Below, one piece after another: positions 52,393 through 61,368 of a stretch of 64,000 bases of DNA (positions are counted from its first letter, which is position 1; the number at the start of each line of letters is the position of its first letter). The position numbers were made by a program, and so were the translations under genes. Source of the DNA: Bacteroidales bacterium (GTDB lineage: Bacteria; Bacteroidota; Bacteroidia; Bacteroidales; UBA932); the NCBI GenBank assembly GCA_041663505.1, contig JBAYMP010000001.1, forward strand, positions 30,400 through 94,399, given 5' to 3'. The notes below the pieces were generated by a model. That model did no database searches, had not been told where the DNA came from, and was given only the letters and a program-made list of their open reading frames with translations.

Positions 52393-52782
52393 TTAATTAT
52401 TGGCTTGTACTGTACTAATTATTACTTGAGTAAAGTTTTCAATTCGGAAAAATGTTGGATCTTGCATTGTTGTAGGAGGACAATCGAATTGTTTCAATTC
52501 ACCATTTTTGGCATTTCTAAAACAAAAAGAAACTGAACCACCATTAATAAAGTTAATACCATATTCTAATTGAGTTGTATCTAAATTACAAACCGAAGAA
52601 GGTATATTGAATGTTAATAAAGAATCTTTATTATTTGTGATAATGAATAAACCCAATATTGTTTTAGAGTCGGTTTTCTTGTCAAAACATTTTAAATAAC
52701 CTACTATTTCACCTTTAATCTCACGATTAGCAGGTTCACCTTGCTTATAACATGCAAAAAGCAAGATTGTGCTAAAAAGCAA
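52393..52782 (-). CDS. Hypothetical small Cys-containing lipoprotein (start codon uncertain)
   Basis: Lipobox-like LLFAC. The only available start is TTG at 52782. About 28% GC. Confidence 0.4.
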   Translation of the reverse strand: MLFSTILLFACYKQGEPANREIKGEIVGYLKCFDKKTDSKTILGLFIITNNKDSLLTFNIPSSVCNLDTTQLEYGINFINGGSVSFCFRNAKNGELKQFDCPPTTMQDPTFFRIENFTQVIISTVQANN

Positions 52783-52818
52783 TATGTATTTTTTCGTTTT
52801 TTATATGTTGATTTAATT

Positions 52819-53772
52819 TTACTTCCATTCGCTTGCTTTATTTAGTATTTCAATAGCATCATTACTCAATTCGAGTCGGGCGGCATTTATCAGAGAATCC
52901 AACTGCTCAAGGGTTGTGGCACTTGCTATTGGGGCGGTAACTGAAGGACGCGCAATCAACCATGCAATGGCAACGCTTGCGGGAGTTGTATGGTATTGTG
53001 CCGATACTTCGCCCAATGCTTTCAAAATAGTAAAACCTCTTTCATTGAGATATTTTTTAATGCCTCCACCCCGTACGCTTTTGCCTAAATCGGCTTCACT
53101 TCTGTATTTGCCTGTAAGAAAACCGCTGGCTAAGGAATAGTAACTGATTACACCCACGTTACTGTCAAGGCAAATTTGTTCAAGATTCTTCTCAAAATTT
53201 TCCCGGTCGTATAAATTGTATTGTGGTTGCAATGTCTGGTAAGAGGGGTATCCCAATTTTTTGCTTGCTTCTAACGAAGCGATTAGTCGTTCAGGGGAAA
53301 AGTTGGAAGCGCCTATCCACCTTATTTTGCCTTCTTCTACCAATTGATCATAGGCTTCCAGTGTTTCCTCCACCGGTGTTTTTTCCATATCCACATGAGT
53401 TTGGTACAAATCAATGTAATCTGTCTGTAAACGTTTTAATGAATTCTCAACAGCTCTCAAAATGTATTTTTTGGAAATATCGTTTTGCCCCTGACCCAAA
53501 TCGCTACCTACTTTTGTGGCAATGACAACTTTGTCGCGATTGTTGCGTGCTTTCATCCATTTGCCGATAATCGTTTCCGATTCACCACCTTTGTTTCCAG
53601 GTGCCCAAGCACTATAAACATCAGCGGTATCAATAAAATTGAATCCTGATGTAATAAATCTATCCAGCAGTTCAAATGCAGTTTTCTCGTTAACTGTCCA
53701 ACCAAATATATTTCCCCCAAAACATAAAGGAGCAACATCCATATCTGAATTGGCTAATCTTCTCTTTTTCAT
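52819..53772 (-). CDS. Aldo/keto reductase
   Basis: 317 aa with FIDTADVY and the AKR (alpha/beta)8 pattern. Confidence 0.85.
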   Translation of the reverse strand: MKKRRLANSDMDVAPLCFGGNIFGWTVNEKTAFELLDRFITSGFNFIDTADVYSAWAPGNKGGESETIIGKWMKARNNRDKVVIATKVGSDLGQGQNDISKKYILRAVENSLKRLQTDYIDLYQTHVDMEKTPVEETLEAYDQLVEEGKIRWIGASNFSPERLIASLEASKKLGYPSYQTLQPQYNLYDRENFEKNLEQICLDSNVGVISYYSLASGFLTGKYRSEADLGKSVRGGGIKKYLNERGFTILKALGEVSAQYHTTPASVAIAWLIARPSVTAPIASATTLEQLDSLINAARLELSNDAIEILNKASEWK

Positions 53773-53785
53773 TATTTCTCTTTTT

Positions 53786-53835
53786 AATTTATTGTCAGAG
53801 TGCTATGATCTATTTTTAAAATCATGTTGTATCGT
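53786..53835 (-). repeat. Intergenic repeat copy 1 (plus strand AATTTATTGTCAGAGTGCTATGATCTATTTTTAAAATCATGTTGTATCGT)
   Basis: It shares the blocks AATTTATT / CAGAGTGCTATGA / TTTTTAAA / TGTAT with 55472-55517. Confidence 0.75.
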
Positions 53836-54879
53836 TTATTGTATGTTTTTATAATTTTTTGCTTGCAACAATTGTTGGTCCTGACTTCCAATAAATGTTG
53901 CCGGGTACTTTGGTGTAAGTTTCGTTAATTCATCAATAACCACAATCTCTTCTGTAGATAGTTTCAATTCAGCACCGGCCAAATTTCCTTCTAATTGTTC
54001 GATTTTACTGACACCAATAATAACAGTTGAAACTACTTTTTTAGAAAGCAACCAGGCAATAGAAACAGCCGTTGGTGTATCATTGTGGTTATTAGCTATT
54101 TCGGTTATTTTATCCACAACCTGATAACCAAATTCTCTGTCGAAAAGGCCCAAATCAGATGAATTTAATCTTGCTCCTTCCGGTTGCGGGTTTTGTCGTG
54201 TGTATTTACCAGTCAAAAATCCACTACTCAAAGGCGACCACACCATCATTCCAATTCCGTGGTATAAAGTCATTGGAATAAATTCTCTTTCTACTTCTCT
54301 GTTCAAAATTGAATAATGCATTTGTGAAGCCACAAATGGATGATAGTTTAAATCTTTCTGCTTTTGTATCATTGTTCCTGCCTTCCATGCCTGATAATTT
54401 GAAAATCCGATGTAACGGACCATTCCACGCTGAATTAAGTACTCCATTGTTTTTAATGTTTCGTCAATTGGTGTAATCGGATCATCGTTGTGCAAAAGCA
54501 GAACGTCAATATAATCTGTGTTCAGGTTTTTCAAACTATTCTGGCATTGTTCTATGAGATGTTTTGCATTTATTCCTGCGTTAAATGCTTGTTGTCCTGA
54601 CCTGAAACAAATTTTGGTCGAAACTAAAACATCCTTACGTTTATTGCCCAAAGCCATTCCTAAAATTTTCTCACTTTGCCCGTTCCCATACCCATCTGCA
54701 GTATCATAAAAATTAATACCCGTTTCAATGGACTTGTAGACAAGTTCGGTTGCTTTTTTTCGATCAAAGGTAAATTTCATACCGAAATGGTCACCTTCTC
54801 CTGATTCTCCGAAGGTCATTGTTCCCAAAGCTAATTCAGATACGATAAGTCCTGAATTTCCGAGTTGTCTGTACTTCAT
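53836..54879 (-). CDS. Aldo/keto reductase
   Basis: MKYRQLGNSGLIVSELALGTMTFG, FYDTADGYGNGQSE. The start was set at Met13 of the ORF. Confidence 0.85.
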   Translation of the reverse strand: MKYRQLGNSGLIVSELALGTMTFGESGEGDHFGMKFTFDRKKATELVYKSIETGINFYDTADGYGNGQSEKILGMALGNKRKDVLVSTKICFRSGQQAFNAGINAKHLIEQCQNSLKNLNTDYIDVLLLHNDDPITPIDETLKTMEYLIQRGMVRYIGFSNYQAWKAGTMIQKQKDLNYHPFVASQMHYSILNREVEREFIPMTLYHGIGMMVWSPLSSGFLTGKYTRQNPQPEGARLNSSDLGLFDREFGYQVVDKITEIANNHNDTPTAVSIAWLLSKKVVSTVIIGVSKIEQLEGNLAGAELKLSTEEIVVIDELTKLTPKYPATFIGSQDQQLLQAKNYKNIQ

Positions 54880-54881
54880 TA

Positions 54882-55439
54882 CTATTTTCTCAAAGGTTTT
54901 AAAGCTATACCCCACGCTATTACCTGGTCTATTACTGTATTTAAGATTGCTTCATGGTGAGGAGCAGGTTTGAATACACTATAATTTTCAAAGTCGGTAA
55001 ATAGTGAAAGGGCAACCTGTGCACGAACATCAGCTACCTGAAGTTCTCCCATAATAAGACGTAATTGCTCAACGGCACGCACACCACCTGCTGAACCATA
55101 GCTAACAAAACCTGCTGCTTTATTATTCCATTCTACATAAAGATAATCAATTGCATTTTTGAGAGCTCCGGTAGCTGCATGATTATATTCCGGAGTTACA
55201 AAAATAAAGGCATCAAAAGATTTAATTTTTTCAGACCACAATTTTGTATGCGGGTGCATATATTGTTGCATTGATGCAGGCACAGGTTCGTCTAATAAGG
55301 GCAGATCATAGTCTTTAATGTCAACAAGTTCAAATTTTGCATCGCTTCGTTTTTGAGCGATTTCATTAACCCAGAAAGCAACGGCTTCACAGTTCCTTCC
55401 GGGTCTCGTACTTCCAATGATGATGGCAATCTTAATCAT
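54882..55439 (-). CDS. NADPH-dependent FMN reductase family protein
   Basis: IAIIIGSTRPGR and FVTPEYNHAATGALKNAIDY. Confidence 0.85.
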   Translation of the reverse strand: MIKIAIIIGSTRPGRNCEAVAFWVNEIAQKRSDAKFELVDIKDYDLPLLDEPVPASMQQYMHPHTKLWSEKIKSFDAFIFVTPEYNHAATGALKNAIDYLYVEWNNKAAGFVSYGSAGGVRAVEQLRLIMGELQVADVRAQVALSLFTDFENYSVFKPAPHHEAILNTVIDQVIAWGIALKPLRK

Positions 55440-55471
55440 AATAATATCTTTTTATTGTTTATGTTTTTTTC

Positions 55472-55517
55472 AATTTATTACCAGAGTGCTATGAGTTTTT
55501 AAAGTATTTCTGTATTG
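55472..55517 (-). repeat. Intergenic repeat copy 2 (plus strand AATTTATTACCAGAGTGCTATGAGTTTTTAAAGTATTTCTGTATTG)
   Basis: See copy 1. It fills the spacer between the NmrA-like gene stop and the FMN reductase start. Confidence 0.75.
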
Positions 55518-56174
55518 TTAATAAGCTGCTGTAAAACGCTGGCGGATGTGCTTTGGATTTTCTGCTTCATCCACAATAACCACAGCAAGGTCTTCTACGG
55601 AAAGGACGCTTCTATTATTGGCATCAAATACAGGGTTTTCCAAACCGGTTCTATATGTGCCTTTTCTTTCGCCTGATGAACCTTGGTGCATTTCGATTGC
55701 AGGGCTAAAAAAAGTCCAGTCCAGATCTTTCTCTTCTCTTAGTATATTCAAGTAATCCCGTGCTGCCGAAGCCCCTGGTTTTATCTCTTCCGGGAATTGC
55801 TGTGTGTCTATTAATTGAACACCTTCAGCAACATATAAGCTTCCTGCGCCGCCTATTACAATAAGACGTTTAACGCCCGATTTCTTTACGCCTGCCTGGA
55901 TAGCTTTTGAACCCTCCAAAAACTCATTGTACAGATTTGGATTGGCCCATCCTGCATTGTAAGCACTTACAACAACGTCATTATCTTTTACTGCTTCGGC
56001 CACGTCGTTTTCATTTAAAACATTGGCTTTAACAACAGTCACCTGCTCCGCCTGTTTTATTTTTTCAGGGTGGCGCACTATGGCGGTTACTTTATGCTTT
56101 CGTTGTAACAATTCATTTAGAATTGCTGTACCTACGAATCCTGATGCTCCTATTAATGCTACTTTCATTTTCAA
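55518..56174 (-). CDS. NAD(P)H-binding NmrA/YwnB-like atypical SDR (flavin reductase-like)
   Basis: VALIGASGFVGTAI Rossmann motif; about 215 aa. Confidence 0.8.
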   Translation of the reverse strand: MKMKVALIGASGFVGTAILNELLQRKHKVTAIVRHPEKIKQAEQVTVVKANVLNENDVAEAVKDNDVVVSAYNAGWANPNLYNEFLEGSKAIQAGVKKSGVKRLIVIGGAGSLYVAEGVQLIDTQQFPEEIKPGASAARDYLNILREEKDLDWTFFSPAIEMHQGSSGERKGTYRTGLENPVFDANNRSVLSVEDLAVVIVDEAENPKHIRQRFTAAY

Positions 56175-56185
56175 GTTTTATCCTA

Positions 56186-57172
56186 TTATTTGTTCACATA
56201 TGTCATATTTTGCCCGGAGTAACGAGTACCGGAGGCAGCACCGGCAGGTATCGCATTGTTAAGTTGCGTTATCTCTTCCCTGGTTAGGGTTATGTCCACT
56301 GCTTTGACATTCTCTTCAAGATATGTCCTGCGTTTTGTACCAGGTATAGGCACTACGTCTTCACCCTGAGCAAGTACCCATGCAAGAGCTATTTGAGCCA
56401 GAGTACAGCTTTTTACCTTTGATAGTTCATCCAGCTTGCTAAGGAGGTTCAAATTATTTTTGAAATTTTCTCCCTGGAAACGAGGAAGACCTTTACGGAA
56501 GTCCTCTTCTTTCATATCTTCATCTTTCCTGAATTTTCCGGTAAGGAAACCTCGTCCAAGAGGACTATAAGGAACAAACCCAATTTCCAGCTCACGACAA
56601 GTTGCGAGTATTTCCTTTTCTACGTCACGCGTCCATAAGGAATACTCTGTTTGCAGTGCTGTGATCTTATGAATTTTATCAGCACGTCGTATCGTATCAG
56701 CACTTGCTTCAGAAAGTCCGATATAGCGTACTTTGCCTTCTTTTACAAGTTTTGCCATTGCTTCGATAGTCTCTTCAATCGGAGTATCCGGGTCAACCCT
56801 ATGCTGGTAGTAAAGGTCTATTACATCTACATTAAGCCTTTTCAGACTGGCCTCGCAGGCAGAACGAACATATTCCGGTTTGCCATTCACTCCTAAAAAC
56901 TCCCCTTTAGAACCTCTCAAATTTCCGAATTTTGTTGCGAGAAATACCTTATTTCTTTTTCCTTTCAGAGCTTTGGCGACAAGCTCCTCATTTTTGCCAA
57001 CACCGTACATATCGGCAGTGTCAAGAAAATTGATGCCAAGCTCTATCGCACGATGGATAGTAGCAATAGATTCAATGTCATCGCCTTTCCCATAAAATTC
57101 TGACATACCCATGCAGCCCAGACCGATTGCGGATACTGTGGGGCCATTCTTACCTAAAGTTTTGTTTTTCAT
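56186..57172 (-). CDS. Aldo/keto reductase
   Basis: [33 protein letters not shown]. The ATGA start/stop overlap with the upstream gene suggests translational coupling. Confidence 0.85.
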
Positions 57173-58230
57173 ATTACAATCAATTTTACTTCTACATTGC
57201 CACGGGTGGCATTGGAATATGGACATACCTGGTGCGCTTTGTTTGCCAGTTCTTCGGCTACACTATGTTCAACGCCCGGTACTTTTATTTTCAGCGTTAT
57301 TTCTAAGCCATAGCCTCCTTTCTCATTTTTGCCCAGACTTACCTCTGCTGTTACAGACGTAGTGCCTGCTTTTATTTTTTCTGCCCTTATGATATTGAGC
57401 AGGGCGTTGTCAAAACAGGCAGCATATCCACCGGCAAACAGGATTTCAGGATTCAGGTAATCACCCTTCGGGCCGCCAAGCGATTGTGGTGCCCTTACCT
57501 GTATGTCGAGTACGCCGTTATCTGATTTTACATGTCCGTTACGTCCGCCTGTTGCGGTGGCTATTGCCGTATACATTTTTTCCATTCGAAGGTTATTTCC
57601 GAAAATTTCTTCCACACGGTTGCGTTTCTGATACATGTCCCAATAAAGAGCAGCAATTTGATCGGCAATATCCGGTGTAATCTGGCAGCAAACAGTTACA
57701 GTCCCGCTATAAATTCCTTTCTCCGCTAATTCTTCGTTCAATATATAAGTGTAATTGCGCAAAGCGGCAGCCATAAGACTTAAAGAACCAATCATTGGCA
57801 TAGGAGTGATAGACGACCTGCCGCCCGTCAGCAGAATCGCCCCATTTTTATTTTTAATCATATCCGGCAGTACTTGTTGAACGCTTGCTATCGCACCAAG
57901 AACTTGAAATTCGAATGTCCTTTTAGCAATAGCAGTCGTTACTTGCGACGGAGGTATAAATTCCATATTTATCGGGCTGTATTCCAGCACATCAACCGAT
58001 CCGTATTCGGTGCTTACCGACAAAAGGGCATTAATGATTGACTGTTCGTCCATAACATCTGCCACAAACCCTTTTGATTCAATTCCAAGTGATTTAAGAG
58101 AAGCAACCATTTTACCCAATGATTCTTTGCGTCGGGCTATCAACGCTACCCGGAAACCATTCCTGCCAAATGTTTTCGCAACAGAAAGGCCGAGTCCCGG
58201 ACCCGCACCAATAATAGCTATTGTTTTCAT
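57169..58230 (-). CDS. In-frame fusion of an SDR-like NAD(P)-binding domain (about 215 aa) and an Ohr/OsmC organic hydroperoxide resistance domain (about 139 aa)
   Basis: The N-terminus has [13 protein letters not shown]. The C-terminus from [17 protein letters not shown] has Ohr hallmarks: R (GGRNG), E (NPEILFA), Cys (YAACF) and Cys (HQVCPYS). There is no stop codon between the two parts. Confidence 0.75.
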
Positions 58231-58253
58231 ACGTAGATATTTTATAATTTTTA

Positions 58254-59267
58254 TTAATTTAAAATCCGGTCTTGCTGCATAGAATCAACCGCCCAACTGG
58301 GATATTCCGGTGTAAGTTTGCTTACTTCATTTAATTTTTTCAGCTCATCTTCCGTAAAATATATTTCGATTGATTTTAGATTGTCCTGCAATTGTTTTTC
58401 ATTTTTAACTCCGAGTATTACACTGGTAACTACCTTTTGATGCAGTAACCATGCTAAGGCAACCTGAGCAACTGAAGCATTATGCGCTTTACTTACTTCA
58501 TCCATTATGTCAATAATATCAAAAGTTTTTTCTTTGTTGATTGGGGGGAAATCAAATTCTTTTCTTCTTGATTCTTCTTCCGGTATTTGGTTTCTTCTGT
58601 ATTTACCGGATAAAAATCCACCGGCAAGCGGACTCCAAACCATCAAACCCAGATTTTGATCGTTAAGCAATGGAACAATTTCTCTTTCCAATTCCCTTCC
58701 GGCAATTGAATAATAAGCTTGCAAAGATTTGAATTTATTGAAACCATTTTTATCGGATATCCACAAACTCTTCATCAATTGCCAGGCTGTTAAATTGGAA
58801 CAACCGATATACCTGACCTTTCCGCTGTGAACTAAGTCATCCAAAGCGCGTAATGTCTCTTCAAGCGGGGTAAGTATATCGAAACCATGGATTTGATAGA
58901 GGTCAATATAATCTGTCCCAAGTCTTTTCAAACTCTCATTAACCTGATTCATAATATGCACGCGCGATAAACCTGTCTGGTTTACTCCTTCGCCCATTTT
59001 GCCCCTGACTTTTGTCGCTAAGATTATGTCTTTTCTTTTTGTGCCTAAAGACCTTCCCAGTATCTGCTCGGAAATTCCGGTCGAATAAATATTGGCGGTA
59101 TCAAAAAAATTGATTCCCGCATCGAGGGCTAAGCCAACCATCTGATCGGCTTCTTCTTGTTGAGTTTTACCAACCGGGGTCCACGTACCGGTACCGCCAA
59201 AAGTCATAGTGCCGAAACATAATTCTGACACTAATATTCCAGTGTCTCCTAAAATTCGATATTTCAT
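58254..59267 (-). CDS. Aldo/keto reductase
   Basis: MKYRILGDTGILVSELCFGTMTFGG, FFDTANIYS. The start was set at Met19 of the ORF. Confidence 0.85.
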   Translation of the reverse strand: MKYRILGDTGILVSELCFGTMTFGGTGTWTPVGKTQQEEADQMVGLALDAGINFFDTANIYSTGISEQILGRSLGTKRKDIILATKVRGKMGEGVNQTGLSRVHIMNQVNESLKRLGTDYIDLYQIHGFDILTPLEETLRALDDLVHSGKVRYIGCSNLTAWQLMKSLWISDKNGFNKFKSLQAYYSIAGRELEREIVPLLNDQNLGLMVWSPLAGGFLSGKYRRNQIPEEESRRKEFDFPPINKEKTFDIIDIMDEVSKAHNASVAQVALAWLLHQKVVTSVILGVKNEKQLQDNLKSIEIYFTEDELKKLNEVSKLTPEYPSWAVDSMQQDRILN

Positions 59268-59305
59268 ATTTAAAAAGTATTTGTGTGAATATACTGTTAT
59301 AATCG

Positions 59306-60085
59306 TTACATTGCTGTCCATCCTCCGTCGGCTGTGACAACAGCACCATTGACGAAACTTGAGTCACTTGAGGCAAGAAATAGGGCTACCTGAGCAATTT
59401 CTTCAGGTTCGGCAGTTCTTGGATTAGTTAATGCTTGTGCCGGAAGAATAACATTTTTGACTAAGTCTGATACATTGTCTGTCGTAAACCCACTTGTATG
59501 CGCAATATTGGTATTAACAGCACCCGGAGCTATAGCGTTGCAGCGGATGCCCCTCTTAGCATACATAAAACCGGTATTTTGAGTTAAACCTATCAATGCA
59601 TGTTTGCTTGCTGTATAAGCTGCACCCGCTACAGCCCCTGCAAAACCGGCTATTGATGCGTTATTGACAATTACTCCCCCTTTACCACTGTTTAACATGA
59701 TCTGAATAGCTTTACGTGTAGTTTTAAACGGGCCATTAATATTTATATTCATAGTACGCTCCCACATTTCAACAGACATTTCTCCTGCCCCATTAAAATC
59801 ATCCATTACACCAGCATTATTAACCAACACATCTACTGTTCCATATATATCAAGAGCCAACTTGAACATTTTTTCAATATCTTCTTCTTTTGCCACATTT
59901 GCCAAAACTGTTGTTATCTGGCCTCCTGCTTGTTTAATTTCTTTTTCCAGATTGTCTAAAGAGGATTGATTGATATCAGAACCAACCACTAAACTGCCAT
60001 GTTCGGCAAATAATATAGCAATTGCTTTCCCCATACCGGAACCTGCACCGGTAATAATAGAAACTTTATTTTCTAACTTTTTCAT
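59306..60085 (-). CDS. Classical short-chain dehydrogenase/reductase (FabG-like)
   Basis: TGAGSGMGKA, NNAG, and YTASKHAL (YxxxK). Confidence 0.9.
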   Translation of the reverse strand: MKKLENKVSIITGAGSGMGKAIAILFAEHGSLVVGSDINQSSLDNLEKEIKQAGGQITTVLANVAKEEDIEKMFKLALDIYGTVDVLVNNAGVMDDFNGAGEMSVEMWERTMNININGPFKTTRKAIQIMLNSGKGGVIVNNASIAGFAGAVAGAAYTASKHALIGLTQNTGFMYAKRGIRCNAIAPGAVNTNIAHTSGFTTDNVSDLVKNVILPAQALTNPRTAEPEEIAQVALFLASSDSSFVNGAVVTADGGWTAM

Positions 60086-60632
60086 TGCAATTCATAACCC
60101 ATTTTGCGAATGCATCCAGAAAAATCCGTAAAAATCCCGATGTTGACTCATTTACAAGATTTCCGCTGTCGTCAAACAAATTTGCTACACCTCCGATATA
60201 AACTTCGGGCTGTGGCATAACAGGAACATTTATAACCATAAGCGATTGTCTCAAGTGATGATTTGCACCGAATCCACCTAAAGCTCCTGGTGAAATACTT
60301 ACAATGGCGCCTGGTTTTCCATCCCATGAATTTTCACCATAAGGTCGGGATCCTACATCGATTGCATTTTTAAGTACCGCCGGAACTGAACGATTGTACT
60401 CAGGCGTAACGAAAAGAAGACCGTCAAAGTCCTTCAGTAGACTACGAAACCCCAACCATTCGGCAGGTGGTGTTTCTTCGAGATCCTGGTTGTACATCTG
60501 AAGTCCTCCTATCTCAACGATTTCAAGTGTAAGTGATTCGGGTGCAAGCATTATTAGTGCTTTTGCCATCTTTCGGCTAAATGATTCCTTTCTAAGGCTT
60601 CCTATAATAACTGCGATTTTTTTAGATTTCAT
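60066..60632 (-). CDS. NADPH-dependent FMN reductase (ChrR/YieF-like quinone reductase)
   Basis: IAVIIGSLRKESFSR and FVTPEYNRSVPAVLKNAID. Confidence 0.85.
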   Translation of the reverse strand: MKSKKIAVIIGSLRKESFSRKMAKALIMLAPESLTLEIVEIGGLQMYNQDLEETPPAEWLGFRSLLKDFDGLLFVTPEYNRSVPAVLKNAIDVGSRPYGENSWDGKPGAIVSISPGALGGFGANHHLRQSLMVINVPVMPQPEVYIGGVANLFDDSGNLVNESTSGFLRIFLDAFAKWVMNCNEKVRK

Positions 60633-60783: not shown

Positions 60784-61368
60784 ATGTCAGAAATAGAAGT
60801 TAAGAGCTTAATTGTTGAATCAGCAACAAGAACTTTTTCAAAATTCGGCTTCTATAAGACTACGATGAATGAGATTGCCAGGCATATCCATAAAGCTAAA
60901 GGAGTTCTTTATTATTATTATAAAAGCAAAGAGGACCTTTTTAACGAAGTACTGAAACAAGAATTGAATATTGTTAAAGTAGAGTTAAATAAAATAGTCG
61001 ATAATGAAGAAGATTCTCTTGTTATACTCAAAACATACATACTTTCACGCCTGAAATTACTAAGCAAGTCGATTAATTATCGCGAAACACTAAAAGCAGA
61101 TTTCTTTGAAAAATATATTTTTGTTAAAGGTGTCAAAGATGATTTTGACGTGTTTGAACGTGCCAAACTAACTTTAATTTTAGGAAAAGGCAAAAATCAA
61201 GGTTACCTCGATGTTCAAGACATTAATTCTGCAGTAAATATTTTAATGATGATAATGAACGGTATAGAAATACCTTTATTCTTACAAAATAAGTATTCTG
61301 AATATGAAAACACTATTGATGAATTATCCACAATGCTAGTGAAAAGTTTAAAGGTTCAAAAAAACTGA
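60784..61368 (+). CDS. TetR/AcrR-family transcriptional regulator
   Basis: N-terminal HTH FGFYKTTMNEIARHIHKAKGVLYYYYKSKEDLF; 194 aa. Confidence 0.85.
   Translation: MSEIEVKSLIVESATRTFSKFGFYKTTMNEIARHIHKAKGVLYYYYKSKEDLFNEVLKQELNIVKVELNKIVDNEEDSLVILKTYILSRLKLLSKSINYRETLKADFFEKYIFVKGVKDDFDVFERAKLTLILGKGKNQGYLDVQDINSAVNILMMIMNGIEIPLFLQNKYSEYENTIDELSTMLVKSLKVQKN

Follow-up and report, generated by a model that had tools for sequence, protein, structure and literature searches.

This locus raises the question of whether an SDR-like NAD(P)-binding domain joined in frame to an Ohr peroxidase makes a self-contained, pyridine-nucleotide-linked organic hydroperoxide reductase, or two known proteins held in one chain. 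The open reading frame (ORF) concerned lies on the minus strand, at positions 57169..58230, of a 64,000-nucleotide stretch of contig JBAYMP010000001.1 (assembly GCA_041663505.1, Bacteroidales bacterium), the whole of which is hereafter referred to as the window. It has an ATG start and 353 codons followed by a TGA stop; the original prediction, made from the sequence, gave the ORF and its coordinates correctly, but left the strand unstated. The fusion proved to be a real, lineage-specific variant of known parts, and the evidence does not point to a new type of enzyme. The explanation favoured here, to which we assign as a whole a probability of roughly 0.7, is that of a genuine fusion of co-clustered genes, recently formed by rearrangement and deletion in a shuffling operon, with two autonomous modules between which no electrons would pass directly.

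The Ohr module and the SDR-fold module

Searches of Pfam and NCBIfam and comparison with relatives in the PDB upheld the claim of an in-frame fusion, in one ORF, of an SDR-fold module (residues 1-215) to a complete and catalytically intact Ohr peroxidase (residues 216-353). The Ohr module (57172..57585, minus strand) starts at the native Ohr ATG (MEKMYTA...). It was matched by the Pfam OsmC family (PF02566; residues 255-350, 53.1 bits, cutoff 27.5) and by the NCBIfam Ohr family TIGR03561 (residues 219-351, 160.8 bits, cutoff 88.85), and its score against the Vibrio-type Ohr equivalog NF052637 (150 bits) fell below the cutoff of 240. The closest solved structure was the Ohr 6d9n (E value 1.7e-53, residues 215-352 aligned), and residues 216-353 aligned end to end with the solved Ohr structures 6d9n, 1zb8 and 1n2f, with which they share all four catalytic residues. 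These residues, listed as conserved in the original prediction, are all present: Arg230 (57541-57543), Glu262 (57445-57447), the peroxidatic Cys272 in YAACF (57415..57417) and the resolving Cys336 in QVCPYS (57223..57225), all on the minus strand and located by alignment to 6d9n and 1zb8. The motifs quoted there (GAGPGLG, YAACF and QVCPYS, the last given as HQVCPYS) and the two internal methionines, Met216 and Met219, were also found, and all of its descriptive statements were correct. These include the statement that Ohr is normally a stand-alone protein of about 140 aa, the relatives of the fused Ohr being separate proteins of 135-157 aa. At 353 aa, the polypeptide departs from this single-domain format of the Ohr subfamily, the best 120 Ohr relatives having lengths of 135-149 aa. 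The module shares its starting Met with stand-alone relatives of about 90% identity or more but, unlike them, it is preceded by a covalently attached SDR-fold module of 215 residues. Residues 231-249 had low confidence in the AlphaFold2 (AF2) model of the monomer; judging from Ohr structures in general, this segment is probably involved in the dimer.

The identification of residues 1-215 (57586..58230, minus strand) as an SDR-fold, NADP(H)-binding module is based on a match to the Pfam adh_short family (PF00106; residues 2-176, 80.7 bits, cutoff 26.6), an AF2 model of this half with a predicted local distance difference test score of 96, Foldseek matches to ketoreductases and sugar dehydrogenases (TM score 0.8-0.9, sequence identity 20-25%) and conservation within the family. 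The dinucleotide motif G8-A-G-P-G-L-G14 (58189..58209, minus strand) was apparent in the sequence and in the alignment; G10, G14 and Arg33 (58132-58134, minus strand) are invariant in the family alignment A4, and G8 and G12 are conserved at 90% or more. An Arg after strand beta-2 is associated with a preference for NADP(H) in SDRs, and the position of Arg33 suggests such a preference here. The module has the same fold and N-terminal dinucleotide motif as classical SDRs of PF00106, such as the actinorhodin ketoreductase (1x7g) and DhuD (9kd1), but differs from them by its low identity (about 20-25%) and by the replacement of key motifs. The loss of the classical Tyr-x-x-x-Lys, proposed earlier from a hand alignment, was borne out by a family-profile hidden Markov model alignment to 3ucx, which places L150-S-L-M-A154 (57769..57783, minus strand) at this position, with Leu and Ala for the catalytic Tyr and Lys; the module is thus non-canonical. 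The NNAG that follows strand beta-4 in classical SDRs is replaced by E83-Y84-S85-P86, and E-Y-S-P is conserved in the family, and the position of the catalytic Ser aligns with the invariant G137, S139 lying two residues further on.

These features characterize the family as a whole. Neither Tyr nor Lys was found at the L150 and A154 columns in any of 61 stand-alone homologues, so the missing Tyr-x-x-x-Lys does not reflect decay after fusion. The fused module is 80-90% identical to stand-alone members of this atypical SDR family (213-252 aa; P0001, P0006 and P0017), with which it shares GxGxxG, R33, Y84-S85-P86, G137 and R158, together with the lack of Tyr-x-x-x-Lys, and it retains 52 of the 53 positions conserved at 90% or more across the 61 homologues. 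It is also complete, with 215 residues against 213-226 aa in its orthologues (213 aa in that of the relative L096) and 214-219 aa in distant members. The stand-alone proteins, annotated merely as "SDR family NAD(P)-dependent oxidoreductase", keep a final 11 residues (IENGLPVRFND) and a stop codon where the window has Ohr instead. A vicinal pair, Cys181-Cys182 (57685-57690, minus strand), ends strand beta-6 at what we take, from general knowledge of SDRs, to be the site of the classical PG motif, near the expected nicotinamide; within the family, only a Bacteroidales subgroup, comprising about 10-15 of the 61 homologues, has this pair. Two joint MAFFT alignments of the fusion with many SDR and Ohr sequences (A2 and A3) misaligned the SDR half, but a third (A5), with window-derived fragments and fewer Ohr rows, was sound.

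Over the whole protein, the only cysteines are residues 181, 182, 272 and 336, and there is no CxxC motif. The full-length AF2 model has both domains folded, joined by a linker of about six residues (approximately residues 211-216). As this linker has low confidence and the predicted TM score of the model is 0.63, the domains are not predicted to meet at a defined interface.

Independent records of the fusion

A missing base or a stop codon at the junction, named beforehand as the observation that would imply two separate genes, was looked for, and none was found. The junction is spanned without gaps by contigs from at least six independent public runs, belonging to at least five studies of groundwater, landfill and wastewater. 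In the Logan contigs, there were no differences from the window across 56933-58131 in X1 (groundwater) or across the junction in X2 (landfill), and 25 substitutions but no gaps in X3 (a second groundwater study); the whole stretch lies in one contig in X12 (wastewater), and a 170-nt contig of X20 covers 57500-57669. In X6 (wastewater, depth about 170), two contigs meet at 57607-57636, and the junction lies inside one of them. There is also evidence that the fusion is transcribed within a polycistronic RNA: in the wastewater metatranscriptome X9, a single contig of 3929 nt (depth 65) spans 56900-58500 and covers the fusion and both flanking genes, with the caveat that DNA can contaminate metatranscriptome libraries.

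The same 353-aa ORF, with the same neighbours and 97% amino-acid identity, is present in a GTDB species representative (L005), a metagenome-assembled genome (MAG) labelled Rikenellaceae bacterium, where it corresponds to NCBI entry MEN6619092.1, named "Ohr family peroxiredoxin [Rikenellaceae bacterium]". A protein identical to that of the window is also present in public collections, and the fusion has been recorded in NCBI, JGI, ENA and Logan. The window and L005 alleles, both of which have the fusion, differ at 26 codons, with no stop codons or indels (12 synonymous and eight nonsynonymous changes in the SDR half, five and one, respectively, in the Ohr half). The fusion therefore predates their split, and the predominance of synonymous changes indicates that the whole ORF has been under purifying selection since then. 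The landfill sample X2 additionally contains a low-depth contig with a loose end at window position 57598 and the unfused SDR 3' end of a relative (...ENIRIENGFP); its presence beside the fusion indicates that fused and unfused lineages co-occur.

Distribution of the architecture

The architecture is limited to one species-level lineage, that of the MAG labelled Rikenellaceae, present in groundwater, landfill and wastewater metagenomes. The absence of the architecture from every other genome, named in the original prediction as a refuting observation, comes close to being true: only very close relatives, with at least 97% amino-acid identity, have it. Among 5.8 billion proteins searched with a word index, those closest to the SDR half were all stand-alone (213-226 aa, 84-89% identity), as were those closest to the Ohr half (135-149 aa). 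An exhaustive phmmer search of 1.84 billion representatives yielded no other protein combining SDR and Ohr among the best 150 matches, extending down to 119 bits; an SDR fused to a distant domain of the OsmC subfamily would score below this range. The scanning of 185,579 GTDB species genomes identified a single fusion, that of L005, and no fusion was found in a protein-seeded scan of JGI metagenome contigs. The exact 31-nt junction had no match in these JGI contigs either, a collection from which the samples concerned are apparently absent. Among 84 loci, mostly from GTDB species representatives, an SDR and Ohr neighbourhood was found only at L005, that is, the fusion itself, and co-clustering of the two genes was seen only in close Bacteroidales relatives.

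Apparent upstream extensions of Ohr were noted in six JGI matches; the two that were opened (L119 and L125) consisted of the C-terminus of OhrR in frame, and a further extension, at L007, was A-rich non-coding DNA. The fusion also has an effect on protein clustering, in that it links two unrelated families into one 90% protein cluster. The 90%-identity cluster of the 226-aa protein P0001 chains SDR-only proteins, Ohr-only proteins (116-157 aa) and 353-aa fused proteins, and it is because of this chaining that the fusion and its nearest Ohr relatives were hidden in the first homology listings. A different fusion is found in P0165 (295 aa), a protein from a public library, outside the window, in which an N-terminal winged-helix domain of the MarR/OhrR type is followed by Ohr. 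Together with a fungal Ohr that has a mitochondrial presequence, P0165 resembles the window protein in that Ohr tolerates N-terminal additions, but the partner of Ohr in the window is, unlike theirs, an SDR-fold module.

Origin of the junction

The junction (...N-L-R215 / M216-E-K-M219; 57578..57593, minus strand) was located by comparison with the unfused genes of a relative, L099, in which the order is SDR226-DsbA-2HADH (2-hydroxyacid dehydrogenase)-Ohr-GSHPx (L099 4808-11468). The window protein follows the stand-alone SDRs, which end in ...EEIFGENIRIENGLPVRFND, up to ...EEIFGNNLR215 and then continues as Ohr; the stand-alone Ohr relatives start MEKMYTA, and their DNA, ATGGAAAAAATGTATACGGC, is identical to that of the window from Met216 on. 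The alignment with the L099 SDR gene ends at window position 57578 and that with its Ohr gene begins at 57586, giving a 9-nt overlap (57578-57586) that sits on an 8-nt near-repeat, present as ATTGAAAA near the 3' end of the SDR gene and as ATGGAAAA at the start of ohr. A deletion between these near-identical octamers would have joined the SDR to Ohr's own ATG, with the loss of the last 11 codons of the SDR, its stop codon and everything up to the ohr start codon; on the alignments, such an event would yield exactly the in-frame junction seen. A crossover at an exact 8-mer, AAAATGGA, was also considered, but rejected, as it would leave Ohr out of frame.

Rearrangement of the surroundings is apparent from a second relative, L096, with the order SDR213-AKR-GSHPx-Ohr-pirin (AKR, aldo/keto reductase; L096 3570-11290). 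Its SDR gene, with a 26-nt leader, matches window positions 58255-57593 (81% DNA identity), its AKR gene, with a 14-nt trailer, matches 59271-58240 (90%) and its Ohr segment matches 57586-57188 (87%); relative to L096, the gene order in the window is permuted and gpx has gone. The other end of the Ohr module also differs from its nearest stand-alone relatives: the fused Ohr ends in ...KLIVI, without the short C-terminal tail of 7-15 aa that they add (SDDEASS, NDGEAPNYEVHKQVP and others; L099 7880-7952). A second recombination breakpoint thus lies exactly at the end of the Ohr domain. Here, the stop codon (TGA) of the fusion shares bases with the start codon of the aldo/keto reductase gene that follows (ATGA; 57169..57172, minus strand), an arrangement compatible with translational coupling.

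Function of the fused protein

The two modules are best regarded as autonomous, because no interface between them is predicted and because Ohr tolerates N-terminal additions. Specific activity was unchanged in a fungal Ohr with a 33-aa presequence (PMC5384416), and His-tagged Ohr chains start at residue 24-25 in 4xx2 and 6ecy. Cys272 would attack an organic or lipid hydroperoxide, Cys336 would convert the resulting sulfenic acid into a disulfide, and this disulfide would be recycled by an external dithiol, from a lipoylated protein or equivalent, as in other Ohr proteins; Ohr requires dithiols, such as dithiothreitol or dihydrolipoamide, rather than monothiols (PMC5384416). The SDR-fold module would retain whatever NADP(H)-linked role the stand-alone proteins have. 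The main effect of the fusion would then be to fix the co-expression, at a ratio of 1:1, of two members of one detoxification regulon of the TetR/HxlR type. It would have arisen because the genes were co-operonic, and would have been tolerated, or mildly advantageous through its fixed stoichiometry.

Several points weigh against this explanation. No locus with the immediate progenitor arrangement was found, and the relatives on which the deletion model leans are 80-90% identical. In AT-rich DNA, a near-repeat of 8 nt is suggestive at most. Finally, the SDR family is found with Ohr and Gpx in three arrangements, so the functional link between them could be closer than co-regulation.

If the modules merely coexist, the locus provides a clean natural case of operon shuffling and microhomology deletion leading to a two-domain protein and, as its relatives preserve the "before" states, its main use is for annotation and teaching. 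The locus draws attention, too, to a stand-alone SDR-fold family that is widespread, occurs in electrophile and peroxide stress units and lacks the catalytic residues of SDRs. A well-documented fusion origin and this pointer to an uncharacterised atypical SDR family are its chief value.

Among the alternatives, we consider it rather unlikely that ribosomes also, or mainly, start at Met216 or Met219, producing an Ohr of about 15 kDa and leaving the 38-kDa product minor or neutral. The native Ohr ATG and the codons after it are unchanged, and Met219 has an A at -3 and an A-rich leader. In Bacteroidia, which do not use Shine-Dalgarno sequences, an A at -3 and weak mRNA structure matter instead (PMC6847099). 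However, Met216 has a C at -3, the predicted local structure is strong at both codons (-10.8 kcal/mol at Met216 and -13.3 kcal/mol at Met219, versus -1.2 to -6.6 at 12 genuine starts), and the AT content upstream is 0.60-0.67, versus mostly 0.73-0.93 at genuine starts. Ribosomes arriving from Met1 would also occlude the internal site. Internal initiation would, in any case, be compatible with a full-length product.

The self-contained, pyridine-nucleotide-linked peroxidase put forward in the original prediction was not borne out, and we judge it quite improbable. The SDR module would in this case bind NAD(P)H and re-reduce the Ohr disulfide, directly or via Cys181-Cys182, giving a self-sufficient organic hydroperoxide reductase. 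The intact Rossmann motif and invariant Arg33, the short linker holding the modules close together, the clustering of the same SDR family with Ohr and Gpx in relatives, and the position of the Cys-Cys pair at the end of beta-6, near where the nicotinamide is expected from general knowledge rather than from the model, are all in keeping with this possibility. Against it, the protein has no SDR catalytic Tyr/Lys pair, no flavin-binding domain and no CxxC relay; a Pyr_redox_2 match was below threshold (18.6 bits, versus 26.1) and reflects the Rossmann motif only. To our knowledge, no SDR chemistry has been established in which NAD(P)H donates a hydride to a disulfide without a flavin. Most of the SDR family lacks the Cys-Cys pair, the SDR-Ohr neighbourhood is absent from all 83 other loci, and only one species-level lineage has the fusion, the origin of which is accounted for by a deletion in a rearranging operon. 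The protein resembles AhpC/AhpF and the peroxiredoxin-glutaredoxin hybrids in that a thiol peroxidase is tethered to a candidate reductant module. In those systems, electrons are carried by flavin adenine dinucleotide plus CxxC, or by the CxxC of glutaredoxin, but neither a cofactor domain nor a motif of this type was detected in the fused protein.

A broader version, which we hold to be highly improbable, would make the atypical SDR family a flavin-free, NAD(P)H-linked partner of thiol peroxidases, with the fusion as a "Rosetta stone" for lipoyl-independent recycling of Ohr in anaerobic Bacteroidales; the repeated clustering of this family with Ohr, Gpx, DsbA and DoxX genes would fit such a role. 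More doubtful still is a sensor function, in which the SDR-fold module, in the manner of NmrA/HSCARG, would bind NADP(H) non-catalytically and tune the activity or partner binding of Ohr in response to the NADPH/NADP+ ratio. Nucleotide-binding residues are strictly conserved in this family, all of which lacks the catalytic ones, and NmrA-like genes are frequent neighbours of its members. Nevertheless, these members mostly stand alone beside TetR or HxlR regulators, which argues for a role independent of Ohr. In addition, the modules share no interface in the model, and regulation of Ohr in this way has no experimental precedent. The fusion would have a bearing on Ohr recycling where lipoylated proteins are few only if the SDR module feeds electrons to Ohr or regulates it. 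Finally, although the nearest SDR and Ohr relatives are separate genes, we give almost no credence to an artefact (two genes seemingly joined by an error of sequencing or assembly, or in a decaying pseudogene), given the identical, indel-free junction in independent assemblies from at least five studies, the bias towards synonymous substitutions in both halves and the records in four collections.

Genomic context

The fusion lies within ten tightly packed genes (52393..60632, minus strand), likely to form an operon on the basis of their spacing and of the X9 metatranscriptome contig over 56900-58500. The order is FMN_red, SDR259, AKR, SDR-Ohr, AKR, NmrA-like, FMN_red, AKR, AKR and a 129-aa protein, and several starts and stops overlap; the cluster thus comprises two FMN reductases, four AKRs, a classical SDR, an NmrA-like protein, the fusion and one unassigned protein. 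The upstream aldo/keto reductase gene (58254..59267, minus strand) has 89.6% DNA identity to the AKR gene located between SDR and Gpx in L096, and the downstream one (56186..57172, minus strand) encodes 328 aa. The 129-aa ORF at the distal end (52393-52782) had no Pfam match at E values up to 1e-5. No OhrR/MarR gene is adjacent to Ohr; the cluster is flanked instead by a divergent gene for a TetR-family regulator (60784..61368, plus strand), a candidate repressor of the cluster from its position only, and no operator palindrome was found in the intergenic region between this gene and the operon. The flanking DNA is chromosomal, with many housekeeping genes. The locus is a mosaic of shuffled reductase cassettes, and the cluster looks like a large electrophile and peroxide detoxification operon.

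Elsewhere, the usual neighbours of atypical SDR family genes are TetR-like regulators in Firmicutes whereas, in Bacteroidales, they are HxlR, NmrA-like, DoxX, DsbA-like and flavodoxin-like reductase genes; stand-alone members are found in HxlR-NmrA-DoxX-SDR or TetR-SDR units. These neighbours point to electrophile or oxidative-stress units. In the relatives L096 and L099, genes for the atypical SDR, for Ohr and for a member of the glutathione peroxidase family are repeatedly clustered, in varying order, which suggests a shared regulon, and the companion genes in the clusters of relatives encode HxlR, NmrA-like, DoxX, DsbA-like, pirin and TetR proteins.

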